DNA of 64,000 nucleotides from Camelus dromedarius. Lineage: Eukaryota. The position numbers and the translations under genes were made by a program. The DNA is taken from positions 2,604,001 to 2,668,000 of the forward strand of contig NC_087436.1 in NCBI RefSeq assembly GCF_036321535.1. Direction: 5' to 3'. Below are positions 1 through 64,000 of this stretch, in pieces (positions within the stretch are counted from its first letter, which is position 1; the number at the start of each line of letters is the position of its first letter). The notes below the pieces were generated by a model, which worked only from the letters and a program-made list of their open reading frames with translations, made no database searches and was not told the origin of the DNA.

Positions 1-1990
1 AAACTTTTACTCTGGTCTCTCAGTCTGTTTCCTAGTGCCGGTTTGAAGTTCCTGCAGTTTTCACTGTCAAACCGAGATGGAGCTAGTACCTCCCCATATA
101 TATGTATGGATTGGAGTTTGCAAATGAAAAGAAACTTTGTGTTCCCAAGAAGCTAAGTGAAGGACGGCTTATACACACACTTATCTCTCAGAACTGAACA
201 TGTGGAGAGACGTTCATTCATCTAGCACAAAGGGAACGGGTTGCAGGAGAAACTTTTACTCTGGTCTCTCAGTCTGTTTCCTAGTGCCTGTTTGAAGTTC
301 CTGCAGATTTCACTGTAAAACCGATTTGGAGCTAGTACCTCCACATAAATATGTATGGAGTGGAGTTTGCAAGTGAATAGAAACTTTGTGTTCCCAACAA
401 GCTAGGTGAATTACGGCTTTCACACACACTTATCTCTGAGAACTGAGCATGTGGAGAGATTTTCGTTCATCTAGCACAAAGGGAACGTGTTACTGGAGAA
501 ACTTTTACTGTGGTTTCTCAGACTATTTCCTAGTGCCTGTTTGAAGTTCCTGCAGTTTTCACTGTAAAACCAAGTTGGAGCTAGTACCTCCCCATAAATA
601 TATATGGAGTGGAGTTTGCAACTGAAAAGAAACTTTGTGTTCCCAACAAGCTAGGTGAAGAACGGCTTTCACACACACTTATCTCTGAGAACTGAGCATG
701 TGGAGAGACGTTCGTTCATCTAGCGCAAAGTGAACGGGTTGCAGGAGAAACTTTAACTCTGGTCTCTCAGTCTGTTTCCTAGTGCCGGTTTGAAGTTCCT
801 GCAGTTTTCACTGTAAAACCGAGTTGGAGCTAGTACCTCCCCATAAATATATATGGAGTGGAGTTTGCAACTGAAAAGAAACTTTGTGTTCCCAACAAGC
901 TAGGTGAAGGACGGCTTTCACACACACTTATCTCTGAGAACTGAGCATGTGGAGAGACGTTCGTTCATCTAGCACAAAGGGAACGTGTTGCAGGAGAAAC
1001 TTTGACTCTGGTCTCTCAGTCTGTTTCCTAGTGCCGGTTTGAAGTTCCTGCAGTTTTCACTGTCAAACCGAGATGGAGCTAGTACCTCCCCATATATATT
1101 TATGGATTGGTGTTTGCAAATGAAAAGAAACTTTGTGTTCCCAAGAAGCTAGGTGAAGGACGGCTTATACACACCTTATCTCTCAGAACTGAGCATGTGG
1201 AGAGACGTTCATTCATCTAGCACAAAGGGAACGGGTTGCAGGAGAAACTTTTACTCTGGTCTCTCAGTCTGTTTCCTAGTGCCTGTTTGAAGTTCCTGCA
1301 GATTTCACTGTAAAACCGATTTGGAGCTAGTACCTCCACATAAATATGTATGGAGTGGAGTTTGCAAGTGAAAAGAAACTTTGTGTTCCCAACAAGCTAG
1401 GTGAATTACGGCTTTCACACACACTTATCTCTGAGAACTGAGCATGTGGAGAGATTTTCGTTCATCTAGCACAAAGGGAACGTGTTACAGGAGAAACTTT
1501 TACTGTGGTTTCTCAGTCTATTTCCTAGTGCCGGTTTGAAGTTCCTGCAGTTTTCACTGTAAAACCGAGTTGGAGCTTGTACCTCCCCATAAATATATAT
1601 GGAGTGGAGTTTGCAACTGAAAAGAAACTTTGTGTTCCCAACAAGCTAGGTGAAGGAAGGCTTTCACACACACTTATCTCTGAGAACTGAGCATGTGGAG
1701 AGACGTTCGTTCATCTAGCACAAAGGGAACGGGTTGCAGGAGAAACTTTGACTCTGGTCTCTCAGTCTGTTTCCTAGTGCCGGTTTGAAGTTCCTGCAGT
1801 TTTCACTGTCAAACCGAGATGGAGCTAGTACCTCCCCATATATATGTATGGATTGGAGTTTGCAAATGAAAAGAAACTTTGTGTTCCCAAAAGCTAGGTG
1901 AAGGACGGCTTTCACACACACTTATCTCTCAGAACTGAGCATGTGGAGAGACGTTCGTTCATCTAGCACAAAGGGAATGGGTTGCAGGAG
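1..1990 (+). repeat. Degenerate 4-mer/3-mer sub-HOR (A-B-C-D-A'-B'-C'-A'')
   Basis: A-type monomers (GTCAAACCGAGATGG, GATTGG, CAAATG) start at 1, 997 and 1743. B-type monomers (GCCTGT, CAGATT, CCGATTT, GAATTACGG, GAGATTTTCG) start at 250 and about 1245. Confidence 0.85.
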
Positions 1991-2514
1991 AAACTTTTAC
2001 TCTTGTTTCTCAGTCTGTTTCCTAGTGCCGGTTTGAAGTTCCTGCAGTTTTCACTGTAAAACCGAGTTGGAGCTAGTACCTCCCCATAAATATATATGGA
2101 GTGGAGTTTGCAACTGAAAAGAAACTTTGTGTTCCCAACAAGCTAAGTGAAGGACGGCTTTCACACACACTTATCTATGAGAACTGAGCATGTGGAGAGA
2201 CGTTCGTTCATCTAGCACAAAGGGAACGTGTTGCAGGAGAAACTTTTACTCTGGTCTCTCAGTCTGTTTCCTAGTGCCGGTTTGAAGTTCCTGCATTTTT
2301 CACTGTCAAACCGAGTTGGAGCTAGTACCACCCCATATATATGTATGGAGTGGAGTTTGCAACTGAAAAGAAACTTTGTGTTCCCAAGAAGCTAGGTGAA
2401 GGACGGCTTTCAAACACACTTATCTCTCAGAACTGAGCATGTGGAGAGACGTTCCCTCATCTAGCACAAAGAGAACGGGTTGCAGGAGAAACTTTTCTCT
2501 CATTTCTCAGTCTA

Positions 2515-5500
2515 TTTCCTAGTGCCGGTTAGAAGTTCCTGCATGTTTCACTGTAAAACCGAGTTGGAGCTTGTACTTCCGCATATATATTTATGGAGTG
2601 GAGCTTGCAACTGAAAAGAAACTTTGTGTTCCCAACAAGCTAGGTGAAGAACGGCTTTCACACACACATATATCTCAGAACTGAGCATGTGGAGAGACGT
2701 TCGTTCATCTAGCACAAAGGGAACTGGTTGCAGGAGAAACTTTTACTCTGGTTTCTCAGTATGTTTCCTGTTGCCGCTTTGAAGTTCCTGCAGTTTTCAC
2801 TGTAAAAAAGAGTTGGAGCTAGTACCTCCCCATATATATGTATGGAGTGGAGATTGCAATTGAAGAGAAAATTTGTGTTCCCAACAAGCTATGTGAAGGA
2901 CGGCTTTCACACACAGTTAACTCTCAGAACTGAGCATGTGGAGAGACGTTCATTCATCTAGCACAAAGAGAACGGTTTGCAGGGGAAAGTTTTACTCTGG
3001 TTTCTCAGAGAATTTCCTAGTGCCGTTTTGAAGTTCGTTTAGTTTTCACTGTAAAACCGAGTTGGTGCTAGTACCACCCCATATATATGTATGTAGTGGA
3101 GTTTGCAACTGAAAAGAATCTTTGAGTTCCAATCAAGCTAGGTGAAGGACGGCTTTCACACACACTTATCTCTCAGAACTGAGCATGTGGAGAGACGTTC
3201 GTTCATCTAGCACAAAGAGAACGGTTTGCAGGGGAAAGTTTTACTCTGGTTTCTCAGACTATTTCCTAGTGCCGGTTTGAAGTTCCTGCAGGTTTCACTG
3301 TAAAACCGAGTTTCAGCTAGTACCTCCCCATATATATGTATGGAGTGAAGTTTGCAAATGAAAAGATACTTTGTGTTCCCAAGAAGCGATGTGAATTACG
3401 GCTTTCACACACACTTATCTCTCAGAACTGAGCATGAGGAGAGACGTTCGTTCATCTAGCAGAAAGGGAACGGGTTGTAGGAGAAACTTTTACTCTGGTT
3501 TCTCAGTCTGTTTCCTAGTGTCGGTATGAAGTTCCTGCAGTTTTCACTGTAAAACCGAGTTGGAGCTAGTACCTCTACATAAATATGTATGGAGTGGAGT
3601 TAGCAACTGAACAGAAACTTTGTGTTCCCAACAAGCTAGGTGAAGGACGGCTTTCACACACATATTTCTCTCAGAACTGAGCATGTGGAGAGACGTTCGT
3701 TCATCTAGCAGAAAGGGAACGTGTTGTAGGAGAAACTTTTACTCTGGTTTCTCAGTCTGTTTCCTAGTGCCGGTTTGAAGTTCCTGCAGTTTTCACTGTC
3801 AAACCGAGTTGGAGCTAGTACCTCCCCATATATATGTATGGAGTGGAGTTTGCAACTGAAAAGAAACTTTGTGTTCCCAACAAGCTAGGTGAAGGACGGC
3901 TTTCACACACACTTATCTTTCACAACTGAGCATGTGGAGAGACTTTCGTTCATCTAGCACAAAGGGAACTGGTTGCAGGAGAAACTTTTACTCTGGTTTC
4001 TAATTCTTTTTCGTAGAGCCGGGTTGAAGTTCCTGCAGTTTTCACTGTAAAATCGAGTTGGAGCTAGTACTTCCCCATATATATGTATGGAGTGGGGTTT
4101 GCAACTGAAAAGAAACTTTGTGTTCCCAACAAGCTAGGTGAAGGACGGCTTTCACACACAATTATCTCTCAGAACTGAGCATGTGGAGAGACGTTCATTC
4201 ATCTAGCACAAAGGGAACTGTTTGCAGGAGAAACTTTTACTCTGGATTCTCATTCTGTTTCCTAGTGCCGGTTTGAATTTCCTGCAGTTTTCACTATAAA
4301 ACCGAGTTGGAGCTAGTACCTCCCCATATATATGTATGGAGTGGAGTTTGCAACTGAAACGAAACTTTGTGTTCCCAACAACCTAGTTGAAGGACGGCTT
4401 TCACACACACTTATCTCTCAGAACTGAGCATGTGGAGAGACGTTCGTTCATCTAGCACAAATGGAACGGGTTGCAGGAGAAACTTTTATTTGGTTTCTCA
4501 GTCTGTTTCCTAGTGCCTGTTGGAAGTTCCTGCAGATTTCACTGTAAAACCGAGTTGGAGCTAGTACCTCCACATAAATATGTATGGAGTGGAGTTTGCA
4601 AGTCAAAAGAAACTTTGTGTTCCCAACAAGCTAGGTGAATCACGGCTTTCACACACAATAATCTCTGAGAACTGGGCATGTGGAGAGACTTTCGATCATC
4701 TAGCACAAAGGGAACGGGTTACAGGAGAAATTTTACTCTGGTTTCTCAGTCTATTTCCTAGTGCCGGTTTGAAGTTCCTGCAGTTTTCACTGTAAAACCG
4801 AGTTGGAGCTAGTACCTCCCCATAAATATGTATGGAGTGGTGTTTGCAAATGAACAGAAACTTTGTGTTCCCAACAAGCTAGGTGAAGGACGGCTTTCAC
4901 ACACATATTTCTCTCAGAACTGAGCATGTGGAGAGACGTTCATTCATCTAGCAGAAAGGGAACGGGTTGTAGGAGAAACTTTTCTCTGGTTTCTCAGTCT
5001 GTTTCCTAGTGCCGGTTAGAAGTTCCTGCATGTTTCACTGTAAAACCGAGTTGGAGCTTGTACTTCCGCATATATATTTATGGAGTGGAGCTTGCAACTG
5101 AAAAGAAACTTTGTGTTCCCAACAAGCTAGGTGAAGAACGGCTTTCACACACACATATATCTCAGAACTGAGCATGTGGAGAGACGTTCGTTCATCTAGC
5201 ACAAAGGGAACTGGTTGCAGGAGAAACTTTTACTCTGGTTTCTCAGTATGTTTCCTGTTGCCGCTTTGAAGTTCCTGCAGTTTTCACTGTAAAAAAGAGT
5301 TGGAGCTAGTACCTCCCCATATATATGTATGGAGTGGAGATTGCAATTGAAGAGAAAATTTGTGTTCCCAACAAGCTATGTGAAGGACGGCTTTCACACA
5401 CAGTTAACTCTCAGAACTGAGCATGTGGAGAGACGTTCATTCATCTAGCACAAAGAGAACGGTTTGCAGGGGAAAGTTTTACTCTGGTTTCTCAGAGAAT

Positions 5501-7504
5501 TTCCTAGTGCCGTTTTGAAGTTCGTTTAGTTTTCACTGTAAAACCGAGTTGGTGCTAGTACCACCCCATATATATGTATGTAGTGGAGTTTGCAACTGAA
5601 AAGAATCTTTGAGTTCCAATCAAGCTAGGTGAAGGACGGCTTTCACACACACTTATCTCTCAGAACTGAGCATGTGGAGAGACGTTCGTTCATCTAGCAC
5701 AAAGAGAACGGTTTGCAGGGGAAAGTTTTACTCTGGTTTCTCAGACTATTTCCTAGTGCCGGTTTGAAGTTCCTGCAGGTTTCACTGTAAAACCGAGTTT
5801 CAGCTAGTACCTCCCCATATATATGTATGGAGTGAAGTTTGCAAATGAAAAGATACTTTGTGTTCCCAAGAAGCGATGTGAATTACGGCTTTCACACACA
5901 CTTATCTCTCAGAACTGAGCATGAGGAGAGACGTTCGTTCATCTAGCAGAAAGGGAACGGGTTGTAGGAGAAACTTTTACTCTGGTTTCTCAGTCTGTTT
6001 CCTAGTGTCGGTATGAAGTTCCTGCAGTTTTCACTGTAAAACCGAGTTGGAGCTAGTACCTCTACATAAATATGTATGGAGTGGAGTTAGCAACTGAACA
6101 GAAACTTTGTGTTCCCAACAAGCTAGGTGAAGGACGGCTTTCACACACATATTTCTCTCAGAACTGAGCATGTGGAGAGACGTTCGTTCATCTAGCAGAA
6201 AGGGAACGTGTTGTAGGAGAAACTTTTATTCTGGTTTCTCAGTCTGTTTCCTAGTGCCGGTTTGAAGTTCCTGCAGTTTTCACTGTCAAACCGAGTTGGA
6301 GCTAGTACCTCCCCATATATATGTATGGAGTGGAGTTTGCAACTGAAAAGAAACTTTGTGTTCCCAACAAGCTAGGTGAAGGACGGCTTTCACACACACT
6401 TATCTTTCACAACTGAGCATGTGGAGAGACTTTCGTTCATCTAGCACAAAGGGAACTGGTTGCAGGAGAAACTTTTACTCTGGTTTCTAATTCTTTTTCG
6501 TAGAGCCGGGTTGAAGTTCCTGCAGTTTTCACTGTAAAATCGAGTTGGAGCTAGTACTTCCCCATATATATGTATGGAGTGGGGTTTGCAACTGAAAAGA
6601 AACTTTGTGTTCCCAACAAGCTAGGTGAAGGACGGCTTTCACACACAATTATCTCTCAGAACTGAGCATGTGGAGAGACGTTCATTCATCTAGCACAAAG
6701 GGAACTGTTTGCAGGAGAAACTTTTACTCTGGATTCTCATTCTGTTTCCTAGTGCCGGTTTGAATTTCCTGCAGTTTTCACTATAAAACCGAGTTGGAGC
6801 TAGTACCTCCCCATATATATGTATGGAGTGGAGTTTGCAACTGAAACGAAACTTTGTGTTCCCAACAACCTAGTTGAAGGACGGCTTTCACACACACTTA
6901 TCTCTCAGAACTGAGCATGTGGAGAGACGTTCGTTCATCTAGCACAAATGGAACGGGTTGCAGGAGAAACTTTTATTTGGTTTCTCAGTCTGTTTCCTAG
7001 TGCCTGTTGGAAGTTCCTGCAGATTTCACTGTAAAACCGAGTTGGAGCTAGTACCTCCACATAAATATGTATGGAGTGGAGTTTGCAAGTCAAAAGAAAC
7101 TTTGTGTTCCCAACAAGCTAGGTGAATCACGGCTTTCACACACAATAATCTCTGAGAACTGGGCATGTGGAGAGACTTTCGATCATCTAGCACAAAGGGA
7201 ACGGGTTACAGGAGAAATTTTACTCTGGTTTCTCAGTCTATTTCCTAGTGCCGGTTTGAAGTTCCTGCAGTTTTCACTGTAAAACCGAGTTGGAGCTAGT
7301 ACCTCCCCATAAATATGTATGGAGTGGTGTTTGCAAATGAACAGAAACTTTGTGTTCCCAACAAGCTAGGTGAAGGACGGCTTTCACACACATATTTCTC
7401 TCAGAACTGAGCATGTGGAGAGACGTTCATTCATCTAGCAGAAAGGGAACGGGTTGTAGGAGAAACTTTTCTCTGGTTTCTCAGTCTGTTTCCTAGTGCC
7501 GGTT
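2515..7504 (+). repeat. Tandem duplication of a 10-monomer block (2487-bp period, 2 copies)
   Basis: Rare variants recur at +2487: GGTTAGAAG at 2531/5018, and identical ORFs at 4580/7067. I noticed only one difference (3742 C vs 6229 T). The junction lies within 5002-5017. Confidence 0.95.
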
Positions 7505-8208
7505 TGAAGTTCCTGCAGTTTTCACTGTAAAACCGAGTTGGAGCTAGTACCTCCCCATATATATGTATGGAGTGGTGTTTGCAACTGAAAAGAAAGTTTG
7601 TGTTCCCAACAAGTTAGGTGAAGGACGGCTTTCACACACACTTATCTCTCAGAAATGAGCATGTGGAGAGACGTTCGTTCATCTAGCACAAAGGGAACGG
7701 GTTGCAGGAGAAACTTTTACTCTGGTTTGTCAGTCTGTTTCCTAGTGCCGGTTTGAAGTTCCTGCAGTTTTCACTGTAAAACCAAGTTGGAGCTAGTACC
7801 TCCCCATAAATATATATGGAGTGGAGTTTGCAACTGAAAAGAAACTTTGTGTTCCCAACAAGCTAGGTGAAGAACGGCTTTCACACACACTTATCTTTGA
7901 GAACTGAGCATGTGGAGAGACGTTCGTTCATCTAGCGCAAAGTGAACGGGTTGCAGGAGAAACTTTTACTCTGGTCTCTCAGTCTGTTTCCTAGTGCCGG
8001 TTTGAAGTTCCTGCAGTTTTCACTGTAAAACCGATTTGGAGCTAGTACCTCCCCATAAATATATATGGAGTGGAGTTTGCAACTGAAAAGAAACTTTGTG
8101 TTCCCAACGAGCTAGGTGAAGGACGTCTTTCACACACACTTATCTCTGAGAACTGAGCATGTGGAGAGACGTTCGTTCATATAGCACAAAGGGAACGTGT
8201 TGCAGGAG

Positions 8209-11200
8209 AAACTTTTACTCTGGTCTCTCAGTCTGTTTCCTAGTGCCGGTTTGAAGTTCCTGCAGTTTTCACTGTCAAACCGAGATGGAGCTAGTACCTC
8301 CCCATATATATGTATGGATTGGAGTTTGCAAATGAAAAGAAACTTTGTGTTCCCAAGAAGCTAAGTGAAGGACGGCTTATACACACACTTATCTCTCAGA
8401 ACTGAACATGTGGAGAGACGTTCATTCATCTAGCACAAAGGGAACGGGTTGCAGGAGAAACTTTTACTCTGGTCTCTCAGTCTGTTTCCTAGTGCCTGTT
8501 TGAAGTTCCTGCAGATTTCACTGTAAAACCGATTTGGAGCTAGTACCTCCACATAAATATGTATGGAGTGGAGTTTGCAAGTGAATAGAAACTTTGTGTT
8601 CCCAACAAGCTAGGTGAATTACGGCTTTCACACACACTTATCTCTGAGAACTGAGCATGTGGAGAGATTTTCGTTCATCTAGCACAAAGGGAACGTGTTA
8701 CTGGAGAAACTTTTACTGTGGTTTCTCAGACTATTTCCTAGTGCCTGTTTGAAGTTCCTGCAGTTTTCACTGTAAAACCAAGTTGGAGCTAGTACCTCCC
8801 CATAAATATATATGGAGTGGAGTTTGCAACTGAAAAGAAACTTTGTGTTCCCAACAAGCTAGGTGAAGAACGGCTTTCACACACACTTATCTCTGAGAAC
8901 TGAGCATGTGGAGAGACGTTCGTTCATCTAGCGCAAAGTGAACGGGTTGCAGGAGAAACTTTAACTCTGGTCTATCAGTCTGTTTCCTAGTGCCGGTTTG
9001 AAGTTCCTGCAGTTTTCACTGTAAAACCGAGTTGGAGCTAGTACCTCCCCATAAATATATATGGAGTGGAGTTTGCAACTGAAAAGAAACTTTGTGTTCC
9101 CAACAAGCTAGGTGAAGGACGGCTTTCACACACACTTATCTCTGAGAACTGAGCATGTGGAGAGACGTTCGTTCATCTAGCACAAAGGGAACGTGTTGCA
9201 GGAGAAACTTTTACTCTGGTCTCTCAGTCTGTTTCCTAGTGCCGGTTTGAAGTTCCTGCAGTTTTCACTGTCAAACCGAGATGGAGCTAGTACCTCCCCA
9301 TATATATTTATGGATTGGTGTTTGCAAATGAAAAGAAACTTTGTGTTCCCAAGAAGCTAGGTGAAGGACGGCTTATACACACACATATCTCTCAGAACTG
9401 AGCATGTGGAGAGACGTTCATTCATCTAGCACAAAGGGAACGGGTTGCAGGAGAAACTTTTACTCTGGTCTCTCAGTCTGTTTCCTAGTGCCTGTTTGAA
9501 GTTCCTGCAGATTTCACTGTAAAACCGATTTGGAGCTAGTACCTCCACATAAATATGTATGGAGTGGAGTTTGCAAGTGAAAAGAAACTTTGTGTTCCCA
9601 ACAAGCTAGGTGAATTACGGCTTTCACACACACTTATCTCTGAGAACTGAGCATGTGGAGAGATTTTCGTTCATCTAGCACAAAGGGAACGTGTTACAGG
9701 AGAAACTTTTACTGTGGTTTCTCAGTCTATTTCCTAGTGCCGGTTTGAAGTTCCTGCAGTTTTCACTGTAAAACCGAGTTGGAGCTTGTACCTCCCCATA
9801 AATATATATGGAGTGGAGTTTGCAACTGAAAAGAAACTTTGTGTTCCCAACAAGCTAGGTGAAGGACGGCTTTCACACACACTTATCTCTGAGAACTGAG
9901 CATGTGGAGAGACGTTCGTTCATCTAGCACAAAGGGAACGGGTTGCAGGAGAAACTTTGACTCTGGTCTCTCAGTCTGTTTCCTAGTGCCGGTTTGAAGT
10001 TCCTGCAGTTTTCACTGTCAAACCGAGATGGAGCTAGTACCTCCCCATATATATGTATGGATTGGAGTTTGCAAATGAAAAGAAACTTTGTGTTCCCAAA
10101 AGCTAGGTGAAGGACGGCTTTCACACACACTTATCTCTCAGAACTGAGCATGTGGAGAGACGTTCGTTCATCTAGCACAAAGGGAATGGGTTGCAGGAGA
10201 AACTTTTACTCTGGTTTCTCAGTCTGTTTCCTAGTGCCGGTTTGAATTTCCTGCAGTTTTCACTGTAAAACCGAGTTGGAGCTAGTACCTCCCCATAAAT
10301 ATATATGGAGTGGAGTTTGCAACTGAAAAGAAACTTTGTGTTCCCAACAAGCTAAGTGAAGGACGGCTTTCACACACACTTATCTATGAGAACTGAGCAT
10401 GTGGAGAGACGTTCGTTCATCTAGCACAAAGGGAACGTGTTGCAGGAGAAACTTTTACTCTGGTCTCTCAGTCTGTTTCCTAGTGCCGGTTTGAAGTTCC
10501 TGCATTTTTCACTGTCAAACCGAGTTGGAGCTAGTACCACCCCATATATATGTATGGAGTGGAGTTTGCAACTGAAAAGAAACTTTGTGTTCCCAAGAAG
10601 CTAGGTGAAGGACGGCTTTCAAACCCACTTATCTCTCAGAACTGAGCATGTGGAGAGACGTTCCCTCATCTAGCACAAAGAGAACGGGTTGCAGGAGAAA
10701 CTTTTCTCTCATTTCTCAGTCTATTTCCTAGTGCCGGTTAGAAGTTCCTGCATGTTTCACTGTAAAACCGAGTTGGAGCTTGTACTTCCGCATATATATT
10801 TATGGAGTGGAGCTTGCAACTGAAAAGAAACTTTGTGTTCCCAACAAGCTAGGTGAAGAACGGCTTTCACACACACATATATCTCAGAACTGAGCATGTG
10901 GAGAGACGTTCGTTCATCTAGCACAAAGGGAACTGGTTGCAGGAGAAACTTTTACTCTGGTTTCTCAGTATGTTTCCTGTTGCCGCTTTGAAGTTCCTGC
11001 AGTTTTCACTGTAAAAAAGAGTTGGAGCTAGTACCTCCCCATATATATGTACGGAGTGGAGATTGCAATTGAAGAGAAAATTTGTGCTCCCAACAAGCTA
11101 TGTGAAGGACGGCTTTCACACACAGTTAACTCTCAGAACTGAGCATGTGGAAGGACGTTCATTCATCTAGCACAAAGAGAACGGTTTGCAGGGGATAGTT

Positions 11201-11420
11201 TTACTCTGGTTTCTCAGACTATTTCCTAGTGCCGTTTTGAAGTTCGTTTAGTTTTCACTGTAAAACCGAGTTGGTGCTAGTACCACCCCATATATATGTA
11301 TGTAGTGGAGTTTGCAACTGAAAAGAATCTTTGAGTTCCAATCAAGCTAGGTGAAGGACGGCTTTCACACACACTTATCTCTCAGAACTGAGCATGTGGA
11401 GAGACGTTCGTTCATCTAGC
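8209..11420 (+). repeat. Copy of monomers 1-13 at a 33-monomer offset (8208-8209 bp)
   Basis: The same ordered diagnostic variants occur as in 1 to about 3210, for example CTGAACATG, GAATAGAAAC, AGCGCAAAGTG and TCTATGAG. Identical ORFs lie at 1715/9924. Confidence 0.9.
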
Positions 11421-14400
11421 ACAAAGGGAACGGGTTGCAGGAGAAACTTTTACTCTGGTTTCTCAGTCTGTTTCCTAGTGTCGGTATGAAGTTCCTGCAG
11501 TTTTCACTGTAAAACCGAGTTGGAGCTAGTACCTCTACATAAATATGTATGGAGTGGAGTTAGCAACTGAACAGAAACTTTGTGTTCCCAACAAGCTAGG
11601 TGAAGGACGGCTTTCACACACATATTTCTCTCAGAACTGAGCATGTGGAGAGACGTTCGTTCATCTAGCAGAAAGGGAACGTGTTGTAGGAGAAACTTTT
11701 ACTCTGGTTTCTCAGTCTGTTTCCTAGTGCCGGTTTGAAGTTCCTGCAGTTTTCACTGTCAAACCGAGTTGGAGCTAGTACCTCCCCATATATATGTATG
11801 GAGTGGGGTTTGCAACTGAAAAGAAACTTTGTGTTCCCAACAAGCTAGGTGAAGGACGGCTTTCACACACACTTATCTTTCACAACTGAGCATGTGGAGA
11901 GACTTTCGTTCATCTAGCACAAAGGGAACTGTTTGCAGGAGAAACTTTTACTCTGGATTCTCATTCTGTTTCCTAGTGCCGGTTTGAATTTCCTGCAGTT
12001 TTCACTATAAAACCGAGTTGGAGCTAGTACCTCCCCATATATATGTATGGAGTGGAGTTTGCAACTGAAACGAAACTTTGTGTTCCCAACAACCTAGTTG
12101 AAGGACGGCTTTCACACACACTTATCTCTCAGAACTGAGCATGTGGAGAGACGTTCGTTCATCTAGCACAAATGGAACGGGTTGCAGGAGAAACTTTTAC
12201 TCTGGTTTCTCAGTCTGTTTCCTAGTGCCTGTTTGAAGTTCCTGCAGATTTCACTGTAAAACCGAGTTGGAGCTAGTACCTCCACATAAATATGTATGGA
12301 GTGGAGTTTGCAAGTCAAAAGAAACTTTGTGTTCCCAACAAGCTAGGTGAATCACGGCTTTCACACACAATAATCTCTGAGAACTGGGCATGTGGAGAGA
12401 CTTTCGATCATCTAGCACAAAGGGAACGGGTTACAGGAGAAATTTTACTCTGGTTTCTCAGTCTATTTCCTAGTGCCGGTTTGAATTTCCTGCAGTTTTC
12501 ACTGTAAAACCGTGTTGGAGCTAGTACCTCCCCATAAATATGTATGGAGTGGTGTTTGCAACTGAACAGAAACTTTGTGTTCCCAACAAGCTAGGTGAAG
12601 GACTGCTTTCACACACATTTTTCTCTCAGAACTGAGCATGTGGAGAGACGTTCGTTCATCTAGCAGAAAGGGAACTGGTTGTAGGAGAAAGTTTTACTCT
12701 GGTTTCTCAGTCTGTTTCCTAGTGCCGGTTTGAAGTTCCTGCAGTTTTCACTGTAAAACCGAGTTGGAGCTAGTACCTCCCCATATATATGTGTGGAGTG
12801 GTGTTTGCAACCGAAAAGAAACTTTGTGTTCCCAACAAGTTAGGTGAAGGACGGCTTTCACACACAGTTATCTCTCAGAACTGAGCATGTGGAGAGACGT
12901 TCGTTCATCTAGCACAAAGGGAACTTGTTGCAGGAGAAACTTTTACTCTGGTTTCTCAGTCTGTTTCCTAGTGCCGGTTTGAAGTTCCTGCAGTTTTCAC
13001 TGTAAAAACGAGTTGGAGCTAGTACCTCCCCATAAATATATATGGAGTGGAGTTTGCAACTAAAAAGAAACTTTGTGTTCCCAACAAGCTAGGTGAAGGA
13101 CGGCTTTCACACACAATTATATCTGAGAACTGAGCATGTGGAGAGACGTTCGTTCATCTTGCACAAAGGGAACGTGTTGCAGGAGAAACTTTTACTCTGG
13201 TCTCACAGTCTGTTTCCTAGTGCCGGTTTGAAGTTCCTGCAGTTTTCACTGTCAAACCGAGTTGGAGCTAGTACCTCCCCATATATATGTATGGAGTGGA
13301 GTTTGCAACTGAAAAGAAACTTTGTGTTCCCAACAAGCTAAGTGAAGGACGGCTTTCACAGACACGAATCTCTCAGAACTGAGCATGTGGAGAGACGTTC
13401 CCTCATCTAGCACAAAGAGAACGGGTTGCAGGGAAACTTTTCTCTGGTTTCTCAGTCTGTTTCCTAGTGCCGGTTTGAAGTTCCTGCAGTTTTCACTGTA
13501 AAACCGAGTTGGAGCTAGTACCTCCCCATATATATGTATGGAGTGGAGATTGGAATTGAAGAGAAACTTTGTGTTCCCAAGAAGCTTTGTGAAAGATGGC
13601 TTTCACACACAATTATCTCTCAGAACTGAGCATGTGGAGAGACGTTCATTCATCTAGCACAAAGAGAACGGGTTGCAGGGGAAACTTTACCCTGGTTTCT
13701 CAGACTATTTCCTAGTGCCGTTTGGATGTTCCTGCAGGTTTCACTGTAAAACCGAGTTGGAGCTAGTACCTCCCCATATATATGTATGGAGTGGAGTTTG
13801 CAAATGAAAAGAAACTTTGTGTTCCCAGAAGCTAGGTGAAGGACGGCTTTCACACACATTTTTCTCTCAGAACTGAGCATGTGGAGAGACGTTCGTTCAT
13901 CTAGCAGAAAGGGAACGGTTTGTAGGAGAAACTTTTACTCTGGTTTCTCAGTCTGTTTCCTAGTGCCGGTTTGAAATTCCTGCAGTTTTCACTGTAAAAC
14001 CGAGTTGGAGCTAGTACCTACCCATATGTAAGTATGGAGTGGTGTTTTCAACTGAAAAGAAACTTTGTGTTCCCAACAAGTTAGGTGAAGGACGGCTTTC
14101 ACACACACTTATCTCTGAGAACTGAGCATGTGGAGAGACGTTCGTTTATCTAGCACAAAGGGAACGGGTTGCAGGAGAAACTTTTACTCTGGTCTCTCAG
14201 TCTGTTTCCTAGTGCCTGTTTGAAGTTCCTGCAGATTTCACTGTAAAACCGATTTGGAGCTAGTACCTCCACATAAATATGTATGGAGTGGAGTTTGCAA
14301 GTGAAAAGAAACTTTGTGTTCCCAACAAGCTAGGTGAATTACGGCTTTCACACACACTTATCTCTGAGAACTGAGCATGTGGAGAGATTTTCGTTCATCT

Positions 14401-17400
14401 AGCACAAAGGGAACGTGTTACAGGAGAAACTTTTACTGTGGTTTCTCAGTCTATTTCCTAGTGCCGGTTTGAAGTTCCTGCAGTTTTCACTGTAAAACCG
14501 AGTTGGAGCTTGTACCTCCCCATAAATATATATGGAGTGGAGTTTGCAACTGAAAAGAAACTTTGTGTTCCCAACAAGCTAGGTGAAGGACGGCTTTCAC
14601 ACACACTTATCTCTGAGAACTGAGCATGTGGAGAGACGTTCGTTCATCTAGCACAAAGGGAACGGGTTGCCGGAGAAACTTTGACTCTGGTCTCTCAGTC
14701 TGTTTCCTAGTGCCGGTTTGAAGTTCCTGCAGTTTTCACTGTCAAACCGAGATGGAGATAGTACCTCCCCATATATATGTATGGATTGGAGTTTGCAAAT
14801 GAAAAGAAACTTTGTGTTCCCAAAAGCTAGGTGAAGGACGGCTTTCACACACACTTATCTCTCAGAACTGAGCATGTGGAGAGACGTTCGTTCATCTAGC
14901 ACAAAGGGAATGGGTTGCAGGAGAAACTTTTACTCTGGTTTCTCAGTCTGTTTCCTAGTGCCGGTTTGAAGTTCCTGCAGTTTTCACTGTAAAACCGAGT
15001 TGGAGCTAGTACCTCCCCATAAATATATATGGAGTGGAGTTTGCAACTGAAAAGAAACTTTGTGTTCCCAACAAGCTAAGTGAAGGACGGCTTTCACACA
15101 CACTTATCTATGAGAACTGAGCATGTGGAGAGACGTTCGTTCATCTAGCACAAAGGGAACGTGTTGCAGGAGAAACTTTTACTCTGGTCTCTCAGTCTGT
15201 TTCCTAGTGCCGGTTTGAAGTTCCTGCATTTTTCACTGTCAAACCGAGTTGGAGCTAGTACCACCCCATATATATGTATGGAGTGGAGTTTGCAACTGAA
15301 AAGAAACTTTGTGTTCCCAAGAAGCTAGGTGAAGGACGGCTTTCAAACACACTTATCTCTCAGAACTGAGCATGTGGAGAGACGTTCCCTCATCTAGCAC
15401 AAAGAGAACGGGTTGCAGGAGAAACTTTTCTCTCATTTCTCAGTCTATTTCCTAGTGCCGGTTAGAAGTTCCTGCATGTTTCACTGTAAAACCGAGTTGG
15501 AGCTTGTACTTCCGCATATATATTTATGGAGTGGAGCTTGCAACTGAAAAGAAACTTTGTGTTCCCAACAAGCTAGGTGAAGAACGGCTTTCACACACAC
15601 ATATATCTCAGAACTGAGCATGTGGAGAGACGTTCGTTCATCTAGCACAAAGGGAACTGGTTGCAGGAGAAACTTTTACTCTGGTTTCTCAGTATGTTTC
15701 CTGTTGCCGCTTTGAAGTTCCTGCAGTTTTCACTGTAAAAAAGAGTTGGAGCTAGTACCTCCCCATATATATGTACGGAGTGGAGATTGCAATTGAAGAG
15801 AAAATTTGTGCTCCCAACAAGCTATGTGAAGGACGGCTTTCACACACAGTTAACTCTCAGAACTGAGCATGTGGAAGGACGTTCATTCATCTAGCACAAA
15901 GAGAACGGTTTGCAGGGGATAGTTTTACTCTGGTTTCTCAGACTATTTCCTAGTGCCGTTTTGAAGTTCGTTTAGTTTTCACTGTAAAACCGAGTTGGTG
16001 CTAGTACCACCCCATATATATGTATGTAGTGGAGTTTGCAACTGAAAAGAATCTTTGAGTTCCAATCAAGCTAGGTGAAGGACGGCTTTCACACACACTT
16101 ATCTCTCAGAACTGAGCATGTGGAGAGACGTTCGTTCATCTAGCACAAAGGGAACGGGTTGCAGGAGAAACTTTTACTCTGGTTTCTCAGTCTGTTTCCT
16201 AGTGTCGGTATGAAGTTCCTGCAGTTTTCACTGTAAAACCGAGTTGGAGCTAGTACCTCTACATAAATATGTATGGAGTGGAGTTAGCAACTGAACAGAA
16301 ACTTTGTGTTCCCAACAAGCTAGGTGAAGGACGGCTTTCACACACATATTTCTCTCAGAACTGAGCATGTGGAGAGACGTTCGTTCATCTAGCAGAAAGG
16401 GAACGTGTTGTAGGAGAAACTTTTACTCTGGTTTCTCAGTCTGTTTCCTAGTGCCGGTTTGAAGTTCCTGCAGTTTTCACTGTCAAACCGAGTTGGAGCT
16501 AGTACCTCCCCATATATATGTATGGAGTGGGGTTTGCAACTGAAAAGAAACTTTGTGTTCCCAACAAGCTAGGTGAAGGACGGCTTTCACACACACTTAT
16601 CTTTCACAACTGAGCATGTGGAGAGACTTTCGTTCATCTAGCACAAAGGGAACTGTTTGCAGGAGAAACTTTTACTCTGGATTCTCATTCTGTTTCCTAG
16701 TGCCGGTTTGAATTTCCTGCAGTTTTCACTATAAAACCGAGTTGGAGCTAGTACCTCCCCATATATATGTATGGAGTGGAGTTTGCAACTGAAACGAAAC
16801 TTTGTGTTCCCAACAACCTAGTTGAAGGACGGCTTTCACACACACTTATCTCTCAGAACTGAGCATGTGGAGAGACGTTCGTTCATCTAGCACAAATGGA
16901 ACGGGTTGCAGGAGAAACTTTTACTCTGGTTTCTCAGTCTGTTTCCTAGTGCCTGTTTGAAGTTCCTGCAGATTTCACTGTAAAACCGAGTTGGAGCTAG
17001 TACCTCCACATAAATATGTATGGAGTGGAGTTTGCAAGTCAAAAGAAACTTTGTGTTCCCAACAAGCTAGGTGAATCACGGCTTTCACACACAATAATCT
17101 CTGAGAACTGGGCATGTGGAGAGACTTTCGATCATCTAGCACAAAGGGAACGGGTTACAGGAGAAATTTTACTCTGGTTTCTCAGTCTATTTCCTAGTGC
17201 CGGTTTGAATTTCCTGCAGTTTTCACTGTAAAACCGTGTTGGAGCTAGTACCTCCCCATAAATATGTATGGAGTGGTGTTTGCAACTGAACAGAAACTTT
17301 GTGTTCCCAACAAGCTAGGTGAAGGACTGCTTTCACACACATTTTTCTCTCAGAACTGAGCATGTGGAGAGACGTTCGTTCATCTAGCAGAAAGGGAACT

Positions 17401-23595: not shown

Positions 23596-23625
23596 ATCTA
23601 GCACAAAGGGAACGGGTTGCAGGAG

Positions 23626-35400: not shown

Positions 35401-35559
35401 TACATACCCATAAATATGTATGGAGTGGAGTTTGCAACTGCAAAGAAACTTTGTGTTCCCAACAAGCTAGGTGAATGACCGCTTTCATACACACTTATCT
35501 CTCAGAACTGAGCATGTGGAGAGACGTTCGTTCATCTAGCACAAAGGGAAAGTGTTGCA

Positions 35560-42500: not shown

Positions 42501-42780
42501 AGCACAAAGGGAACGGGATGCAGGAGAAACTTTTACTCTGGTCTCTCAGTCTGTTTCCTTGTGCCGGTTTGAAATTCCTGAAGTTTTCACTGTAAAACCG
42601 AGTTGGAGCTAGTACATACCCATAAATATGTATGGAGTGGAGTTTGCAACTGCAAAGAAACTTTGTGTTCCCATCAAGCTAGGTGAATGACCGCTTTCAT
42701 ACACACTTATCTCTCAGAACTGAGCATGTGGAGAGACGTTCGTTCATCTAGCACAAAGGGAACGTGTTGCAGGAGAAACT
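39540..42780 (+). repeat. 5-mer module tandem (2 x 1243 bp) followed by a 3-mer partial copy (746 bp)
   Basis: GAATGACC occurs at 40696, 41939 and 42685. ORFs at 39516/40759 are spaced by 1243. Confidence 0.85.
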
Positions 42781-44290
42781 TTTACTCTGGTCTCTCAGTC
42801 TGTTTCCTAGTGCCGGTTTGAAGTAACTGCAGTTTTCACTGTAAATCCGTGTTGGTGCTAGTACCTCCCCATATATATGTATGGAGTGGAGATTGCAACT
42901 GAAAAGAAACAATGTGTTCCCAACAAGCTAGTTGAAGGACGGCTTTCAGACACACTTCCTCTCAGAACTGAGCATGTGGAGAGACGTTCGTTCATCTAGC
43001 ACAAAGGGAACGTGTTACAGGAGAAACTTTTACTCTGGTTTCTCAGTCTATTTCCTAGTGCCGGTTGGAAGTTCCTGCAGTTTTCACTGTAAAACCGAGT
43101 TGGAGCTAGTACCTCCCCATAAATATGTATGGAATGGTGTTTGCAACTGAACAGAAACTTTGTGTTCCCAACAAGCTAGGTGAAGGACGGCATTCACACA
43201 CATTTTTCTCTCAGAACTGAGCATGTGGAGAGACGTTCGTTCATCTAGCACAAAGGGAACGGGTTGCAGGAGAAACTTTTACTCTGGTTTCTCAGTATGT
43301 TTCCTAGTGCCGGTTTGAAGTTCCTGCAGTTTTCACTGTAAAACCGAGTTGGAGCTAGTACCTCCCCATAAATATATATGGAGTGGGGTTTGCAACTGAA
43401 AAGAAACTTTGTGTTCCTAACAAGCTAGTTGAAGGACGGCTTTCACACACACTTATCTCTGAGAACTGAGCATGTGGAGAGACGTTCGTTCATCTAGCAC
43501 AAAGGGAACGTGTTGCAGGAGAAACTTTTACTCTGGACTCTCAGTCTGTTTCCTAGTGCCGGTTTGAAGTTCCTGTAGTTTTCACTGTCAAACCGAGTTG
43601 GAGCTAGTACCTCCACATAAATAAGTATGGAGTGGAGTTTGCAAGTGAAAAGAAACTTTTTGTTCCCAACAAGCTAGGTGAAGGACGGCTTTCACACACA
43701 CTTATCTCTGAGAACTGAGCATGTGGAGAGACTTTCGTTCATCTAGCACAAAGGGAACGTGTTACAGGAGAAACTTTTACTCTGGTTTCTCAGTCTATTT
43801 CCTAGTGCCGGTTGGAAGTTCCTGTAGTTTTCACTGTAAAACCGAGTTGGAGCTAGTACCTCCCCATAAATATGTATGGAGTGGTGTTTGCAACTGAACA
43901 GAAACTTTGTGTTCCCAACAAGCTAGGTGAAGGACGGCTTTCACACACATTTTACTCTCAGAACTGAGCATGTGGAGAGACGTTCGTTCATCTAGCAGAA
44001 AGGGAACGGGTTGTAGGGGAAACTTTTACTCTGGTTTCTCAGTCTGTTTCCTAGTGCCCGTTTGAAGTTCCTATAGTTTTCACTTTAAACCGAGTTGGAG
44101 ACACTACCTCCCATATATATATGTATGGAGTGGAGTTTGAAAGTGAAAAGAAACTTTGTGTTCCCTAGAAGCTAGGTGAAGGACGGCTTTCACACATACT
44201 TATCTCTCAGAACTGAGCATGTGGAGAGACGTTCCCTCATCTAGCACAAAGAGAACGGGTTGCAGGAGAAACTTTTCTCTGGTTTCTCAG
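42070..44290 (+). repeat. Copy of about 36100-38320 at a 24-monomer offset (5969 bp)
   Basis: CCCATCAAG occurs at 36701/42670 and GGAGACACTA at 38128/44097. Matching ORFs lie at 36963/42932. Confidence 0.87.
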
Positions 44291-58129: not shown

Positions 58130-61100
58130 AGAACTGACCATGTGGAGAGACGATCGTTCATCTAGCACAAAGGGAAGGGTTTGCAGGAGAAACTTTTACT
58201 CTGGTTTCTCAGTCTGTTTCCTAGTGCCGGTTTGAAGTTCCTGCAGTTTTCACTGTCAAACCGAGTTGGAGCTAGTACCTCCCCATATATATGTACGGAG
58301 TGGAGTTTGCAACTGAAAAGAAACTTTGTGTTCCCAACAAGCTAGGTGAATGACGGCTTTCACACACACTTATCTCTCAGAACTGAGCATGTGGAGAGAC
58401 GATCGTTCATCTAGCACAAAGGGAAGGGTTTGCAGGAGAAACTTTTACTCTGGTTTCTCAGTCTGTTTCCTAGTGCCGGTTTGAAGTTCCTGCAGTTTTC
58501 ACTGTCAAACCGAGTTGGAGCTAGTACCTCCCCATATATATGTATGGAGTGGAGTTTGCAACTGAAAAGAAACTTTGTGTTCCCAACAAGCTAGGTGAAG
58601 GACGGCTTTCACACACACTTATCTCTCAGAACGAAGCATGTGGAGAGACGTTCTTTCATCTAGCACAAAGGGAACGGGTTGTAGGGGAAACTTTTTCTCT
58701 GGTTTCTCAGTCTGTTTCCTAGTGCCGGTTTGAAGTTCCTGCAGTTTTCACTGTAAAACCGAGTTGGAGCTAGTACCTCCCCATATATATGTATGGAGTG
58801 GTGTTTGCTACTGAAAAGAAACTTTGTGTTCCCAACAAGTTAGGTGAAGGACGGCTTTCACACACACTTATCTCTCAGAAATGAGCATGTGGAGAGACGT
58901 TCGTTCATCTAGCACAAAGGGAACGGGTTGCAGGAGAAACTTTTACTCTGGTTTCTCAGTCTGTTTCCTAGTGCCGGTTTGAATTTCCTGCAGTTTTCAC
59001 TGTAAAACCGAGTTGGAGCTAGTACCTACCCATAAATATATATGGAGTGGTGTTTGCAACTGAAAAGAAACTTTGTGTTCCCAACAAGTTAGGTGAACGA
59101 AGGCTTTCACACACACTTATCTCTCAGAACTGAGTATGTGGAGAGAAGTTCGTTCATCTAGCACAAAGGGAACGTGTTGCAGGAGAAACTTTTACTCTGG
59201 TCTCTCAGTCTATTTCCTAGTGCCGGTTTCAAGTTACTGCAGTTTTCAGTGTAAAACCGTGTTGGAGCTAGTAATTCCCCATATATATGTATGGAGTGGA
59301 GTTTGCAACTGAAAATTAACTTTGTGTTCCCAACAAGCTAGGTGAATGACGGCTTTCACACACACTTCCTCTCAGAAATGAGCATGTGGAGAGAAGTTCG
59401 TTCATCTAGCACAAAGGGAACGGGTTGCAGGAGAAACTTTTACTCTGGTTTCTCAGTCTGTTTCCTAGTGCCTGTTTGAAGTTCCTGCAGATTTCACTGT
59501 AAAACCGAGTTGGAGCTAGTACCTCCACATAAATATGTATGGAGTGGAGTTTGCAAGTGAAAAGAAACTTTTTGTTCCCAACAAGCTAGGTGAAGGACGG
59601 CTTTCACACACACTTATCTCTGAGAACTGAGCATGTGGAGAGACTTTCGTTCATCTAGCACAAAGGGAACGTGTTACAGGAGAAACTTTTACTCTGGTTT
59701 CTCAGTCTATTTCCTAGTGCCGGTTGGAAGTTCCTGCAGTTTTCACTGTAAAACCGAGTTGGAGCTAGTACCTCCCCATAAATATGTATGGAGTGGTGTT
59801 TGCAACTGAACAGAAACTTTGTGTTCCCAACAAGCTAGGTGAAGTACGGCTTTCACACACATTTTTCTCTCAGAACTGAGCATGTGGAGAGACGTTCGTT
59901 CATCTAGCAGAAAGGGAACGTGTTGTAGGGGAAACTTTTACTCTGGTTTCTCAGTCTGTTTCCTAGTGCCGGTTTGAAGTTCCTGCAGTTTTCACTGTAA
60001 AACCGAGTTGGAGCTAGTACCTCCCCATATATATGTATGGAGTGGTGTTTGCAACTGAAAAGAAACTTTGTGTTCCCAACAAGTTAGGTGAAGGACGGCA
60101 TTCACACACACTAATCTCTCAGAACTGAGCATGTGGAGAGACGTTCGTTCATCTAGCACAAAGGGATCGGGTTGCAGGAGAAACTTTTACTGTGGTTTCT
60201 CAGTCTGTTTCCTAGTGCCGGTTTGAATTTCCTGCAGTTTTCACTGTAAAAGCGAGTTGGAGCTAGTACCTCCCCATAAATATATATGGAGTGGGGTTTG
60301 AAACTGAAAAGAAATTTTGTGTTCCCAACAGGCTAGGTGAAGGACGGCTTTCACACACAGTTATCTCTGAGAACTGAGCATGTGGAGAGACGTTCGTTCA
60401 TCTAGCACAAAGGGAACGGGTTGCAGGAGAAACTTTTACTCTGGTTTCTCAGTCTGTTTCCTAGTGCCGGTTTGAAGTTCCTGCAGTTTTCACTGTCAAA
60501 CCGAGTTGGAGCTAGTACCTCCCCATATATATGTATGGAGTGGAGTTTGCAACTGAAAAGAAACTTTGTGTTCCCAACAAGCTAGGTGAAGGACGGCTTT
60601 CACACACACTTATCTCTCAGAACGAAGCATGTGGAGAGACGTTCTTTCATCTAGCACAAAGGGAACGGGTTGCAGGAGAAACTTTTACTCTGGTTTCTCA
60701 GTCTGTTTCCTAGTGCCGGTTTGAATTTCCTGCAGTTTTCACTGTAAAACCGAGTTGGAGCTAGTACCTACCCATAAATATATATGGAGTGGAGTTTGCA
60801 ACTGAAAAGAAACTTTGTGTTCCCAACAAGTTAGGTGAACGAAGGCTTTCACACACACTTATCTCTCAGAACTGAGTATGTGGAGAGAAGTTCGTTCATC
60901 TAGCACAAAGGGAACGTGTTGCAGGAGAAACTTTTACTCTGGTCTCTCAGTCTATTTCCTAGTGCCAGTTTCAAGTTACTGCAGTTTTCACTGTAAAACC
61001 GTGTTGGAGCTAGTAATTCCCCATATATATGTATGGAGTGGAGTTTGCAAATGAAAATTAACTTTGTGTTCCCAACAAGCTAGGTGAATGACGGCTTTCA

Positions 61101-64000
61101 CACACACTTCCTCTCAGAAATGAGCATGTGGAGAGAAGTTCGTTCATCTAGCACAAAGGGAACGGGTTGCAGGAGAAACTTTTACTCTGGTTTCTCAGTC
61201 TGTTTCCTAGTGCCTGTTTGAAGTTCCTGCATATTTCACTGTAAAACCGAGTTGGAGCTAGTACCTCCACATAAATATGTATGGAGTGGAGTTTGCAAGT
61301 GAAAAGAAACTTTTTGTTCCCAACAAGCTAGGTGAAGGACGGCTTTCACACACACTTATCTCTGAGAACTGAGCATGTGGAGAGACTTTCGTTCATCTAG
61401 CACAAAGGGAACGTGTTACAGGAGAAAGTTTTACTCTGGTTTCTCAGTCTATTTCCTAGTGCCGGTTGGAAGTTCCTGCAGTTTTCACTGTAAAACCGAG
61501 TTGGAGCTAGTACCTCCCCATAAATATGTATGGAGTGGTGTTTGCAACTGAACAGAAACTTTGTGTTCCCAACAAGCTAGGTGAAGTACGGCTTTCACAC
61601 ACATTTTTCTCTCAGAACTGAGCATGTGGAGAGACGTTCGTTCATCTAGCACAAAGGGAACGTGTTGTAGGGGAAACTTTTACTCTGGTTTCTCAGTCTG
61701 TTTCCTAGTGCCGGTTTGAAGTTCCTGCAGTTTTCACTGTAAAACCGAGTTGGAGCTAGTACCTCCCCATATATATGTATGGAGTGGTGTTTGCAACTGA
61801 AAAGAAACTTTGTGTTCCCAACAAGTTAGGTGAAGGACGGCATTCACACACACTAATCTCTCAGAACTGAGCATGTGGAGAGACGTTCGTTCATCTAGCA
61901 CAAAGGGAACGGGTTGCAGGAGAAACTTTTACTGTGGTTTCTCAGTCTGTTTCCTAGTGCCGGTTTGAATTTCCTGCAGTTTTCACTGTAAAAGCGAGTT
62001 GGAGCTAGTACCTCCCCATAAATATATATGGAGTGGGGTTTGAAACTGAAAAGAAATTTTGTGTTCCCAACAGGCTAGGTGAAGGACGGCTTTCACACAC
62101 AGTTATCTCTGAGAACTGAGCATGTGGAGAGACGTTCGTTCATCTAGCACAAAGGGAACGTGTTGCAGGAGAAACTTTTACTCTGGACTCTCAGTATGTT
62201 TCCTAGTGCCGGTTTGAAGTTCCTGCAGTTTTCACAGTCAAACCGAGTTGGAGCTAGTACATCCCCATATATATGTATGGAGTGGAGTTTGCAACTGAAA
62301 AGAAACTTTGTGTTCCCAACAAGCTAGGTGAAGGACGGCTTTCACACACACTTATCTCTCAGAACTGACCATGTGGAGAGACGATCGTTCATCTAGCACA
62401 AAGGGAAGGGTTTGCAGGAGAAACTTTTACTATGGTTTCTCAGTCTGTTTCCTAGTGCCGGTTTGAAGTTCCTGCAGTTTTCACTGTCAAACCGAGTTGG
62501 AGCTAGTACCTCCCCATATATATGTATGGGGTGGAGTTTGCAACTGAAAAGAAACTTTGTGTTCCCAACAAGCTAGGTGAATGACGGCTTTCACACACAC
62601 TTATCTCTCAGAACTGAGCATGTGGAGAGACGATCGTTCATCTAGCACAAAGGGAAGGGTTTGCAGGAGAAACTTTTACTCTGGTTTCTCAGTCTGTTTC
62701 CTAGTGCCGGTTTGAAGTTCCTGCAGTTTTCACTGTCAAACCGAGTTGGAGCTAGTAACTCCCCATATATATGTATGGAGTGGAGTTTGCAACTGAAAAG
62801 AAACTTTGTGTTCCCAACAAGCTAGGTGAAGGACGGCTTTCACACACACTTATCTCTCAGAACGAAGCATGTGGAGAGACGTTCTTTCATCTAGCACAAA
62901 GGGAACGGGTTGTAGGGGAAACTTTTTCTCTGATTTCTCAGTCTGTTTCCTAGTGCCGGTTTGAAGTTCCTGCAGTTTTCACTGTAAAACCGAGTTGGAG
63001 CTAGTACCTCCCCATATATATGTATGCAGTGGTGTTTGCTACTGAAAAGAAACTTTGTGTTCCCAACAAGCTATGTGAAGGACGGCTTTCACACACACTT
63101 ATCTCTCAGAACTGAGCATGTGGAGAGACATTCGTTCATCTAGCACAAAGGGAACGGTTTGCAGGAGAAACTTTTACTCTGGTTTCTCAGTCTGTTTCCT
63201 AGTGCCTGTTTGAAGTTCCTGCAGATTTCACTGTAAAACCGAGTTGGAGCTAGTACCTCAACATAAATATGTATGGAGTGGAGTTTGCAAGTGAAAAGAA
63301 ACTTTTTGTTCCCAACAAGCTAGGTGAAGGACGGCTTTCACACACACTTATCTCTGAGAACTGAGCATGTGGAGAGACTTTCGTTCATCTAGCACAAAGG
63401 GAACGTGTTACAGGAGAAACTTTTACTCTGGTTTCTCAGTCTATTTCCTAGTGCCGGTTGGAAGTTCCTGCAGTTTTCACTGTAAAACCGAGTTGGAGCT
63501 AGTACCTCCCCATAAATATGTATGGAGTGGTGTTTGCAACTGAACAGAAACTTTGTGTTCCCAACAAGCTAGGTGAAGGACGGCTTTCACACACATTTTT
63601 CTCTCAGAACTGAGCATGTGGAGAGACGTTCGTTCATCTAGCAGAAAGGGAACGGGTTGTAGGGGAAACTTTTACTCTGGTTTCTCAGTCTGTTTCCTAG
63701 TGCCGGTTTGAAGTTCCTGCAGTTTTCACTGTAAAACCGAGTTGGAGCTAGTACCTCCCCATATATATGTATGGAGTGGTGTTTGCAACTGAAAAGAAAC
63801 TTTGTGTTCCCAACAAGTTAGGTGAAGGACGGCATTCACACACACTAATCTCTCAGAACTGAGCATGTGGAGAGACGTTCGTTCATCTAGCACAAAGGGA
63901 ACGGGTTGCAGGAGAAACTTTTACTGTGGTTTCTCAGTCTGTTTCCTAGTGCCGGTTTGAATTTCCTGCAGTTTTCACTGTAAAAGCGAGTTGGAGCTAG
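58130..64000 (+). repeat. Three length-variant copies of one HOR (7-, 8- and 9-monomer offsets)
   Basis: AACGAAGCAT occurs at about 58630/60621/62861 (ORFs spaced 1991 and 2240). AAAGCGAG occurs at about 60250/61992/63984 (1742 and 1992). CTGACCATG occurs at about 58134/62365. Confidence 0.85.

Follow-up and report, generated by a model that had tools for sequence, protein, structure and literature searches.

A 64-kb window of the dromedary genome lies in a tandem array of the camelid candidate centromere repeat, with many-offset duplicated blocks and a transversion-rich substitution spectrum

The window analysed here, 64,000 nucleotides of Camelus dromedarius DNA (RefSeq assembly GCF_036321535.1, contig NC_087436.1, positions 2,604,001 to 2,668,000 of the forward strand), is occupied from end to end by a 249-bp satellite. 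Tandem Repeats Finder (TRF) reports a single array with a period of 249, 257.3 copies and 92% matches, and decomposition yields 257 full monomers plus an 86-bp end piece. An earlier interpretation of the bare letters (hereafter the sequence-only reading) had proposed one monomer family filling positions 1 to 64,000, and this is confirmed by the single TRF array and by the monomer lengths: 249 bp (n = 190), 248 bp (n = 52), 247 bp (n = 14) and 250 bp (n = 1). All monomers are arranged head-to-tail on the same strand and the array extends past both edges of the window. Neither inverted copies nor insertions, transposons included, were found across the 64 kb (TRF and monomer decomposition for the latter), and length changes are always of whole monomers or of 1–2 bp. 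Monomers are on average 95.6% identical to their own consensus (range 3–21 differences), and pairs of monomers are 19.4 differences apart on average (∼8%). GC content is flat at 43–44% along the window; the consensus monomer has 45.0% GC, one PstI site, one MspI site and 6 CpG, and shows no internal sub-repeat (top circular self-match 0.34, mean 0.25). Monomer positions 191–210 (e.g., window positions 191–210) are the most conserved, with 0.7–2.2% variation versus up to 8.5% elsewhere; this segment is a possible protein-binding or repair-anchoring site.

The sequence-only reading could not assign the satellite to a known family, a view that has to be revised. In a hand alignment, the window consensus differs from the lama_glama repeat of Melters et al. 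(2013) by 13 substitutions and 1 gap over 249 columns (∼94% identity), and this entry was the sole match when short window motifs were sought in the supplements of that study. As 66 of the 257 window monomers have at least 14 differences from the consensus, the llama entry lies inside the array's own spread. Judged by this similarity, the window repeat is of the same family as the published Lama glama candidate centromere repeat of 248/249 bp, and it is the most abundant camelid tandem repeat. The llama repeat was catalogued as a 248-nt monomer with 45% GC representing 2.9% of a genome with 2n = 74 (PMC4053949, Table S1). In the short-read runs X1, X4 and X8, one monomer collects 271,535–430,691 contigs with end-to-start joints, figures that reflect depth and not copy number; at least half of the sampled window words are present in 14 of the 24 runs, among those listed. 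Frequent variants fall at monomer positions 99, 115 and 239 in the window and at 201, 229 and 111 in the three runs (among the matches listed), and these differing sets suggest array-specific subfamilies.

The family is therefore already catalogued, and its architecture, described below, is of a known kind, though found undescribed for this repeat. For llama, Melters et al. recorded higher-order repeats (HORs) as 'not found' from Sanger reads in which multimers were sought within single reads, their main text holds neither 'llama' nor 'lama', and the repeat is neither named nor mapped there (PMC4053949). Where the sequence-only reading had called for a comparison with characterised satellites bearing described HORs, the family does turn out to be published as a llama candidate, but with no HOR described. 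Our literature search, outside which Dfam, Repbase and nt lay, retrieved no work naming, mapping or functionally testing the repeat. MspI and PstI were reportedly used by Vidal-Rioja in restriction-enzyme studies of camelid satellites (1987 and 1994), and a monomer with one site for each may have an older name from there.

Other candidates were discarded. A 2026 alpaca survey, in the part available, describes non-centromeric satellites with units of 1.8–8.5 kb and sets centromeric loci aside (PMC13751797); its VpaSat01–20 differ in unit size, and the first 400 letters of 14 of these consensuses are unlike the window by eye. Of its three all-centromere probes, two have forward primers without a match in the window. 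The pericentromeric PaB6 of Prospero autumnale (249 bp, 44% GC, seven TTAGGG per monomer; PMC4273535) resembles the window monomer in length and GC, yet is unrelated: the window contains 0 TTAGGG and 1 CCCTAA, and no primer matches. An exact 22-letter window pattern gave 0 matches in metagenome and viral contigs, and the papers listed for a full-text motif search all concern EGFR.

Duplicated blocks were defined as at least three consecutive monomers, each with at most 5 differences from its counterpart, and compared with 200 shuffles of monomer order. The window contains 33 such blocks, whereas the shuffles gave 0.05 on average and never more than 2, and they include 201 of the 257 monomers (78%). 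Among the offsets listed in the sequence-only reading, 3, 4, 5, 6, 7, 8, 10, 12, 13, 19, 24 and 33 monomers were recovered, whereas offset 9 is unsupported (1 of 248 pairs with ≤5 differences, the background level); additional ones such as 15, 17, 20, 21 and 88 bring the total to 27 different offsets. Full or nearly full tandem units are found at offsets 3, 4, 5, 6, 7, 10, 13/12 and 19, while offsets 8, 24 and 33 correspond to partial blocks spanning 36–39% of the offset: an offset value need not equal a repeat unit. The 13/12 pair arises from a 13-monomer duplication whose second copy lacks one monomer. The 19-mer alone has three copies, with 6, 4 and 8 differing bases between them; the other units are mostly single in-register duplications present in two copies. 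The 19-mer supplies 42 of the 197 monomer pairs with ≤2 differences and is therefore a locally dominant period; the sequence-only reading had noted no single dominant period. Three single-monomer losses were identified. Close pairs (≤5 differences) are absent at offsets 1 (0/256) and 2 (0/255) and number 6–11 at offsets 3–8, 10 and 12, which may point to a lower limit of about three monomers (750 bp) on the size of duplications.

Table 1. Features of the satellite array in window coordinates.
Feature	Position	Strand	Remarks
Example monomer	1..249	+	11 differences from window consensus
249-bp camelid satellite, unbroken head-to-tail array	1..64000	+	257.3 copies; TRF, decomposition
Offset-33 block	1..11426	+	1-3217 copied at 8209-11426; 12.9 monomers; 99.5%
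Offset-33 block, continuation	within 1..11426	+	offsets 32, 31 after two single-monomer losses; left end cut by window edge
10-monomer tandem duplication	2515..7504	+	1 internal difference, 99.96%; among youngest events
Older 4-monomer tandem duplication	7751..9928	+	98.4%; nested in 33- and 19-offset blocks
19-monomer unit (4724 bp), three copies	9454..23625	+	copies 9454-14177, 14178-18901, 18902-23625
Offset-88 copy of 1659-4978	23542..26861	+	13.4 monomers; 99.1%; without the two single-monomer losses
Twelve monomers with few close relatives	26859..29843	+	mean nearest-neighbour distance 9.5 differences
4-monomer tandem duplication	30484..32446	+	98.8%
Partial blocks, offset 21	35049-36822 and 40271-42045	+	about 98.7-98.8%
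Partial blocks, offset 24	36169-38321 and 42138-44290	+	about 98.7-98.8%
5-monomer duplication (39542-42076) overlapped by 3-monomer duplication (41307-42791)	39542..42791	+	about 98.7%
6-monomer duplication	48544-51544	+	99.3%; overlapped by younger 13-monomer duplication
13-monomer duplication	50499-56710	+	99.9-100%; second copy one monomer short
7-monomer duplication	58904-62160	+	99.5%
3-monomer block with further copies at offsets 8 and 15	within 58904..63914	+	

The blocks can be placed in a relative order. Ranked by identity, the left 27 kb carries the old 4-mer (98.4%), then the offset-88 copy (99.1%), then the offset-33 block (99.5%). The two single-monomer losses that shift offset 33 to 32 and 31 are present in all three copies of the 19-mer and missing from the offset-88 copy; they are therefore older than the 19-mer triplication (99.8–99.9%). 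In the right part, the 6-mer duplication (99.3%) precedes the overlapping 13-mer duplication. The island at 26859–29843 separates the left domain, which is young, from an older domain in the middle. Could the near-identical blocks be assembly artefacts, from read tiling or haplotype mixing in satellite DNA? Some blocks are near-perfect, with no difference along 3.9 monomers at offset 12 and a single one in 10 monomers at offset 10, as such an artefact might leave them; however, block identities form a graded range of 97.7–100%, the nesting order is consistent, the 19-mer copies differ by 4–8 bases, and all length changes are of whole monomers or 1–2 bp. We consider this explanation highly improbable.

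To account for this patchwork, we propose that the array turns over through homology-directed gains and losses of whole monomers that keep the register. These comprise duplications of ∼3–19 or more monomers, losses of one monomer and, between nearby monomers, short tracts of conversion. As one event overlaps the next, many local offsets would arise and no fixed period. The window was compared with a neutral simulation run 12 times in each of 4 settings, in which duplications and deletions struck at random but in register, along with point changes and short conversions. The best-matched setting brackets the observed values for blocks (15–107, observed 33), offsets (12–58, observed 27), coverage (0.46–0.86, observed 0.78) and tandem units (3–11, observed 7); a high-conversion setting gave too few blocks and too low a coverage. 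These runs supersede an earlier set of 6, which was over-diverged (49–121 differences; transition/transversion ratio (Ti/Tv) 0.94–1.76). A neutral process thus reproduces the many-offset pattern, and the block patchwork is an ordinary architecture. The interior differences between duplicate copies give a hint of conversion, as alleles of other monomers are reused in excess: the same allele was found outside the duplicate family in 67 of 93 cases versus 51 expected (p = 0.0006, the differences counted not being fully independent). Some clusters of differences have nearby donors and many have none. The repair pathway would lie among unequal exchange, break-induced replication and single-strand annealing, which look alike in one static sequence; of the initial proposal of HORs born by unequal exchange, the locally born blocks are retained and the choice of mechanism is not separable from the other two.

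We also considered that the short offsets might represent early stages of fixed-period HORs, favoured by selection or by drive for a preferred unit as in primate alpha satellite, with the 19-mer starting to spread. The three 19-mer copies at 99.8–99.9% and the lack of 1- or 2-monomer duplications are in line with this idea, which nevertheless appears very unlikely: there are 27 offsets, the share of the top offset (0.18) is also reached by neutral runs, albeit at their upper end, and no stable monomer classes occupy fixed positions. Breakpoints are likewise unclustered within the monomer: a hot spot near the monomer boundary, seemingly visible by eye, was overturned by scan (p = 0.26) and Rayleigh (p = 0.21) tests of 62 block ends against 150 simulated arrays. 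What the window holds instead of primate-type HORs is a 249-bp monomer, at most three copies per unit and 27 offsets. It is a non-alphoid satellite of different length, as the sequence-only reading stated. The contrast drawn there with fixed-period primate HORs makes too much of the novelty, given the neutral simulation, the Arabidopsis CEN178 satellite discussed below and the nested HORs described in human arrays (PMC10053651, available part).

The main value of the analysis lies in the substitution spectrum. Pairwise Ti/Tv in the window is 0.42 (column bootstrap, 95% interval 0.29–0.58); it is 0.34–0.46 across three parts of the array and 0.37–0.46 once monomers with indels or clustered changes are dropped. 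The mammalian reference of ∼2 is that of PMC13684623 and not of a camelid genome. With an input Ti/Tv of 2.1, simulations at matched divergence stayed at 1.16 or above, in a model without CpG hypermutability, and saturation is therefore no explanation of the observed value. The changes are directed towards A and T: of the 361 changes to A or T that could occur relative to the consensus, 237 are present, and of the 386 that could occur to G or C, 103. Ranked by frequency, C>T, G>T, C>A, A>T, G>A and T>A come first, and the last six all end in G or C. A/T sites show 81 A–T swaps versus 37 transitions, A>T and T>A being about twice as frequent as A>G and T>C. CpG sites display 46 transitions and 176 transversions, with no CpG decay. 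Ti:Tv is 55:75 for changes in a single lineage and 30:87 for those in four or more (p = 0.007), although the skew is not monotonic with variant frequency (commonest class, 10:20). In the short-read contigs, positions at which at least 5% vary from monomer 1 give Ti:Tv of 8:38 (X1), 11:35 (X4) and 8:37 (X8), counts that are incomplete and in which 11 positions are monomer 1's own deviations. Polarity throughout rests on the consensus, and the variants are not independent events.

A comparable bias has been reported elsewhere. In the accessible part of a 2026 preprint, active human alpha satellite has a Ti/Tv of 0.55 versus 2.3 expected, the effect being strongest in active arrays; whether the spectrum extends to other satellites was left open there, with a similar value in one HSat1A block (PMC13684623). 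Fewer transitions are also described for Arabidopsis centromeres (10.1101/2025.06.02.657473), and bovid centromeric satellite I of Drung cattle shows 71 transversions and 34 transitions (PMC9008013). The HSat1A, Arabidopsis and cattle precedents count against novelty of the spectrum. What the window adds is its extension to an unrelated repeat without CENP-B boxes, which bears on the preprint's open question. That active mammalian centromeric satellites share a mutational process of their own, independent of sequence family and of CENP-B, is a tentative idea that we hold with considerable doubt; if true, active centromeric arrays would be recognisable across mammals from sequence alone, by a low Ti/Tv together with an excess of A>T. 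The direction towards A/T also suggests a testable mechanism. The A-rule has deoxyadenosine monophosphate (dAMP) inserted across from abasic sites and other unreadable bases. Such insertion during repair synthesis could produce the changes ending in A or T, and transitions would perhaps be further removed by biased conversion. This explanation leaves the 45% GC of the consensus unaccounted for, and a counter-force such as biased conversion would be needed.

We think that the window probably lies inside a centromeric array of the camelid candidate repeat, its blocks being explained by in-register turnover. The family match, the very high head-to-tail copy number, the block structure, the simulation fit, the in-register indels of Arabidopsis and the hint of conversion support this, and the low Ti/Tv, by its resemblance to active human arrays, may be counted in its favour. 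A centromeric function, first put forward as a possibility in the sequence-only reading, appears likely. The satellite would then be a non-coding scaffold for epigenetically maintained CENP-A chromatin or flanking heterochromatin, and CENP-B would have no part in it. The longest stop-free frame in the window is 116 codons, which gives no sign of a coding role; Rfam on positions 1–3000 gave one match at 20.6 bits, below the threshold of 40, and one dimer shows no special folding (z = −1.45; 7 of 100 shuffles equally good). In RNA run X21, 266 of 12.9 million reads match window positions 1–249, in both directions, and 56% of them run on into unlike sequence; this run gives no evidence of a defined transcript.

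Several points weigh against our reading: (i) the literature search found no CENP-A, fluorescence in situ hybridisation (FISH) or methylation data on this repeat; (ii) the call of Melters et al. rests on abundance alone, a rule whose exceptions include maize knobs and tammar (PMC4053949), and equid satellites are described, in the sources available, as uncoupled from centromere function; (iii) a scan of both strands for the nine core bases of the CENP-B box found no site with fewer than 2 mismatches (4 sites have 2, and the best site in the consensus has 3); (iv) neighbouring monomers (19.8 differences) resemble each other no better than distant monomers do (19.4), and the value of 19.8 exceeds all 48 simulation runs (maximum 18.9); (v) the conversion test suffers from the partial dependence given above; and (vi) the array is analysed over the 64-kb window only.

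The array could alternatively belong to the same family but lie outside the kinetochore-bearing core, in pericentromeric or short-arm heterochromatin. Monomers are ∼8% apart and most blocks have just two copies; variants frequent in X1, X4 and X8, such as those at positions 201 and 229, are absent from the window, which is therefore a local subfamily; and large heterochromatic blocks near camelid centromeres are described in the available part of PMC13751797. On the other hand, 78% of monomers lie in recent duplicates, several of them at least 99.8% identical, which indicates recent turnover, no transposon has inserted, and the Ti/Tv of 0.42 seems, by analogy, like that of active and not of old human arrays. 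We regard the pericentromeric alternative as unlikely, though the most serious of those considered, and retain a centromeric array shaped by in-register turnover as the more probable reading. Camelid centromeres are uncharacterised in the literature searched; the window provides a monomer-level map of a candidate repeat array, and the 249-mer is a ready probe for CENP-A and FISH work.

Comparison with known systems places the array among satellites that duplicate locally, in register and in variable numbers of units. With the Lama glama repeat it shares sequence family, monomer length, 45% GC and high abundance, whereas the 3- to 19-monomer duplications of the window have no counterpart in that entry (HOR 'not found'). 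Human alpha satellite has a 171-bp monomer, fixed-period HORs repeated many times over and CENP-B boxes, none of which is seen in the window; active human HOR arrays nevertheless share with it whole-unit indels and nested duplications (PMC13684623 and PMC10053651, in the parts available). Bovid satellite I is likewise artiodactyl, centromeric and transversion-rich, but it is a different repeat, its counts are between species consensuses and its transversions mostly involve G (PMC9008013, available part). For Arabidopsis CEN178, the accessible part of a bioRxiv preprint reports that 56 of 56 large centromeric indels were in register, with insertions of 1–31 and deletions of 1–18 units (10.1101/2025.06.02.657473). 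CEN178 is a plant repeat of 178 bp whose events were seen in mutation-accumulation lines, whereas ours are deduced from one array. The two are alike in their variable-size in-register duplications and deletions, mosaic junctions and lowered share of transitions; short non-allelic conversions, seen in CEN178, are hinted at in the window.

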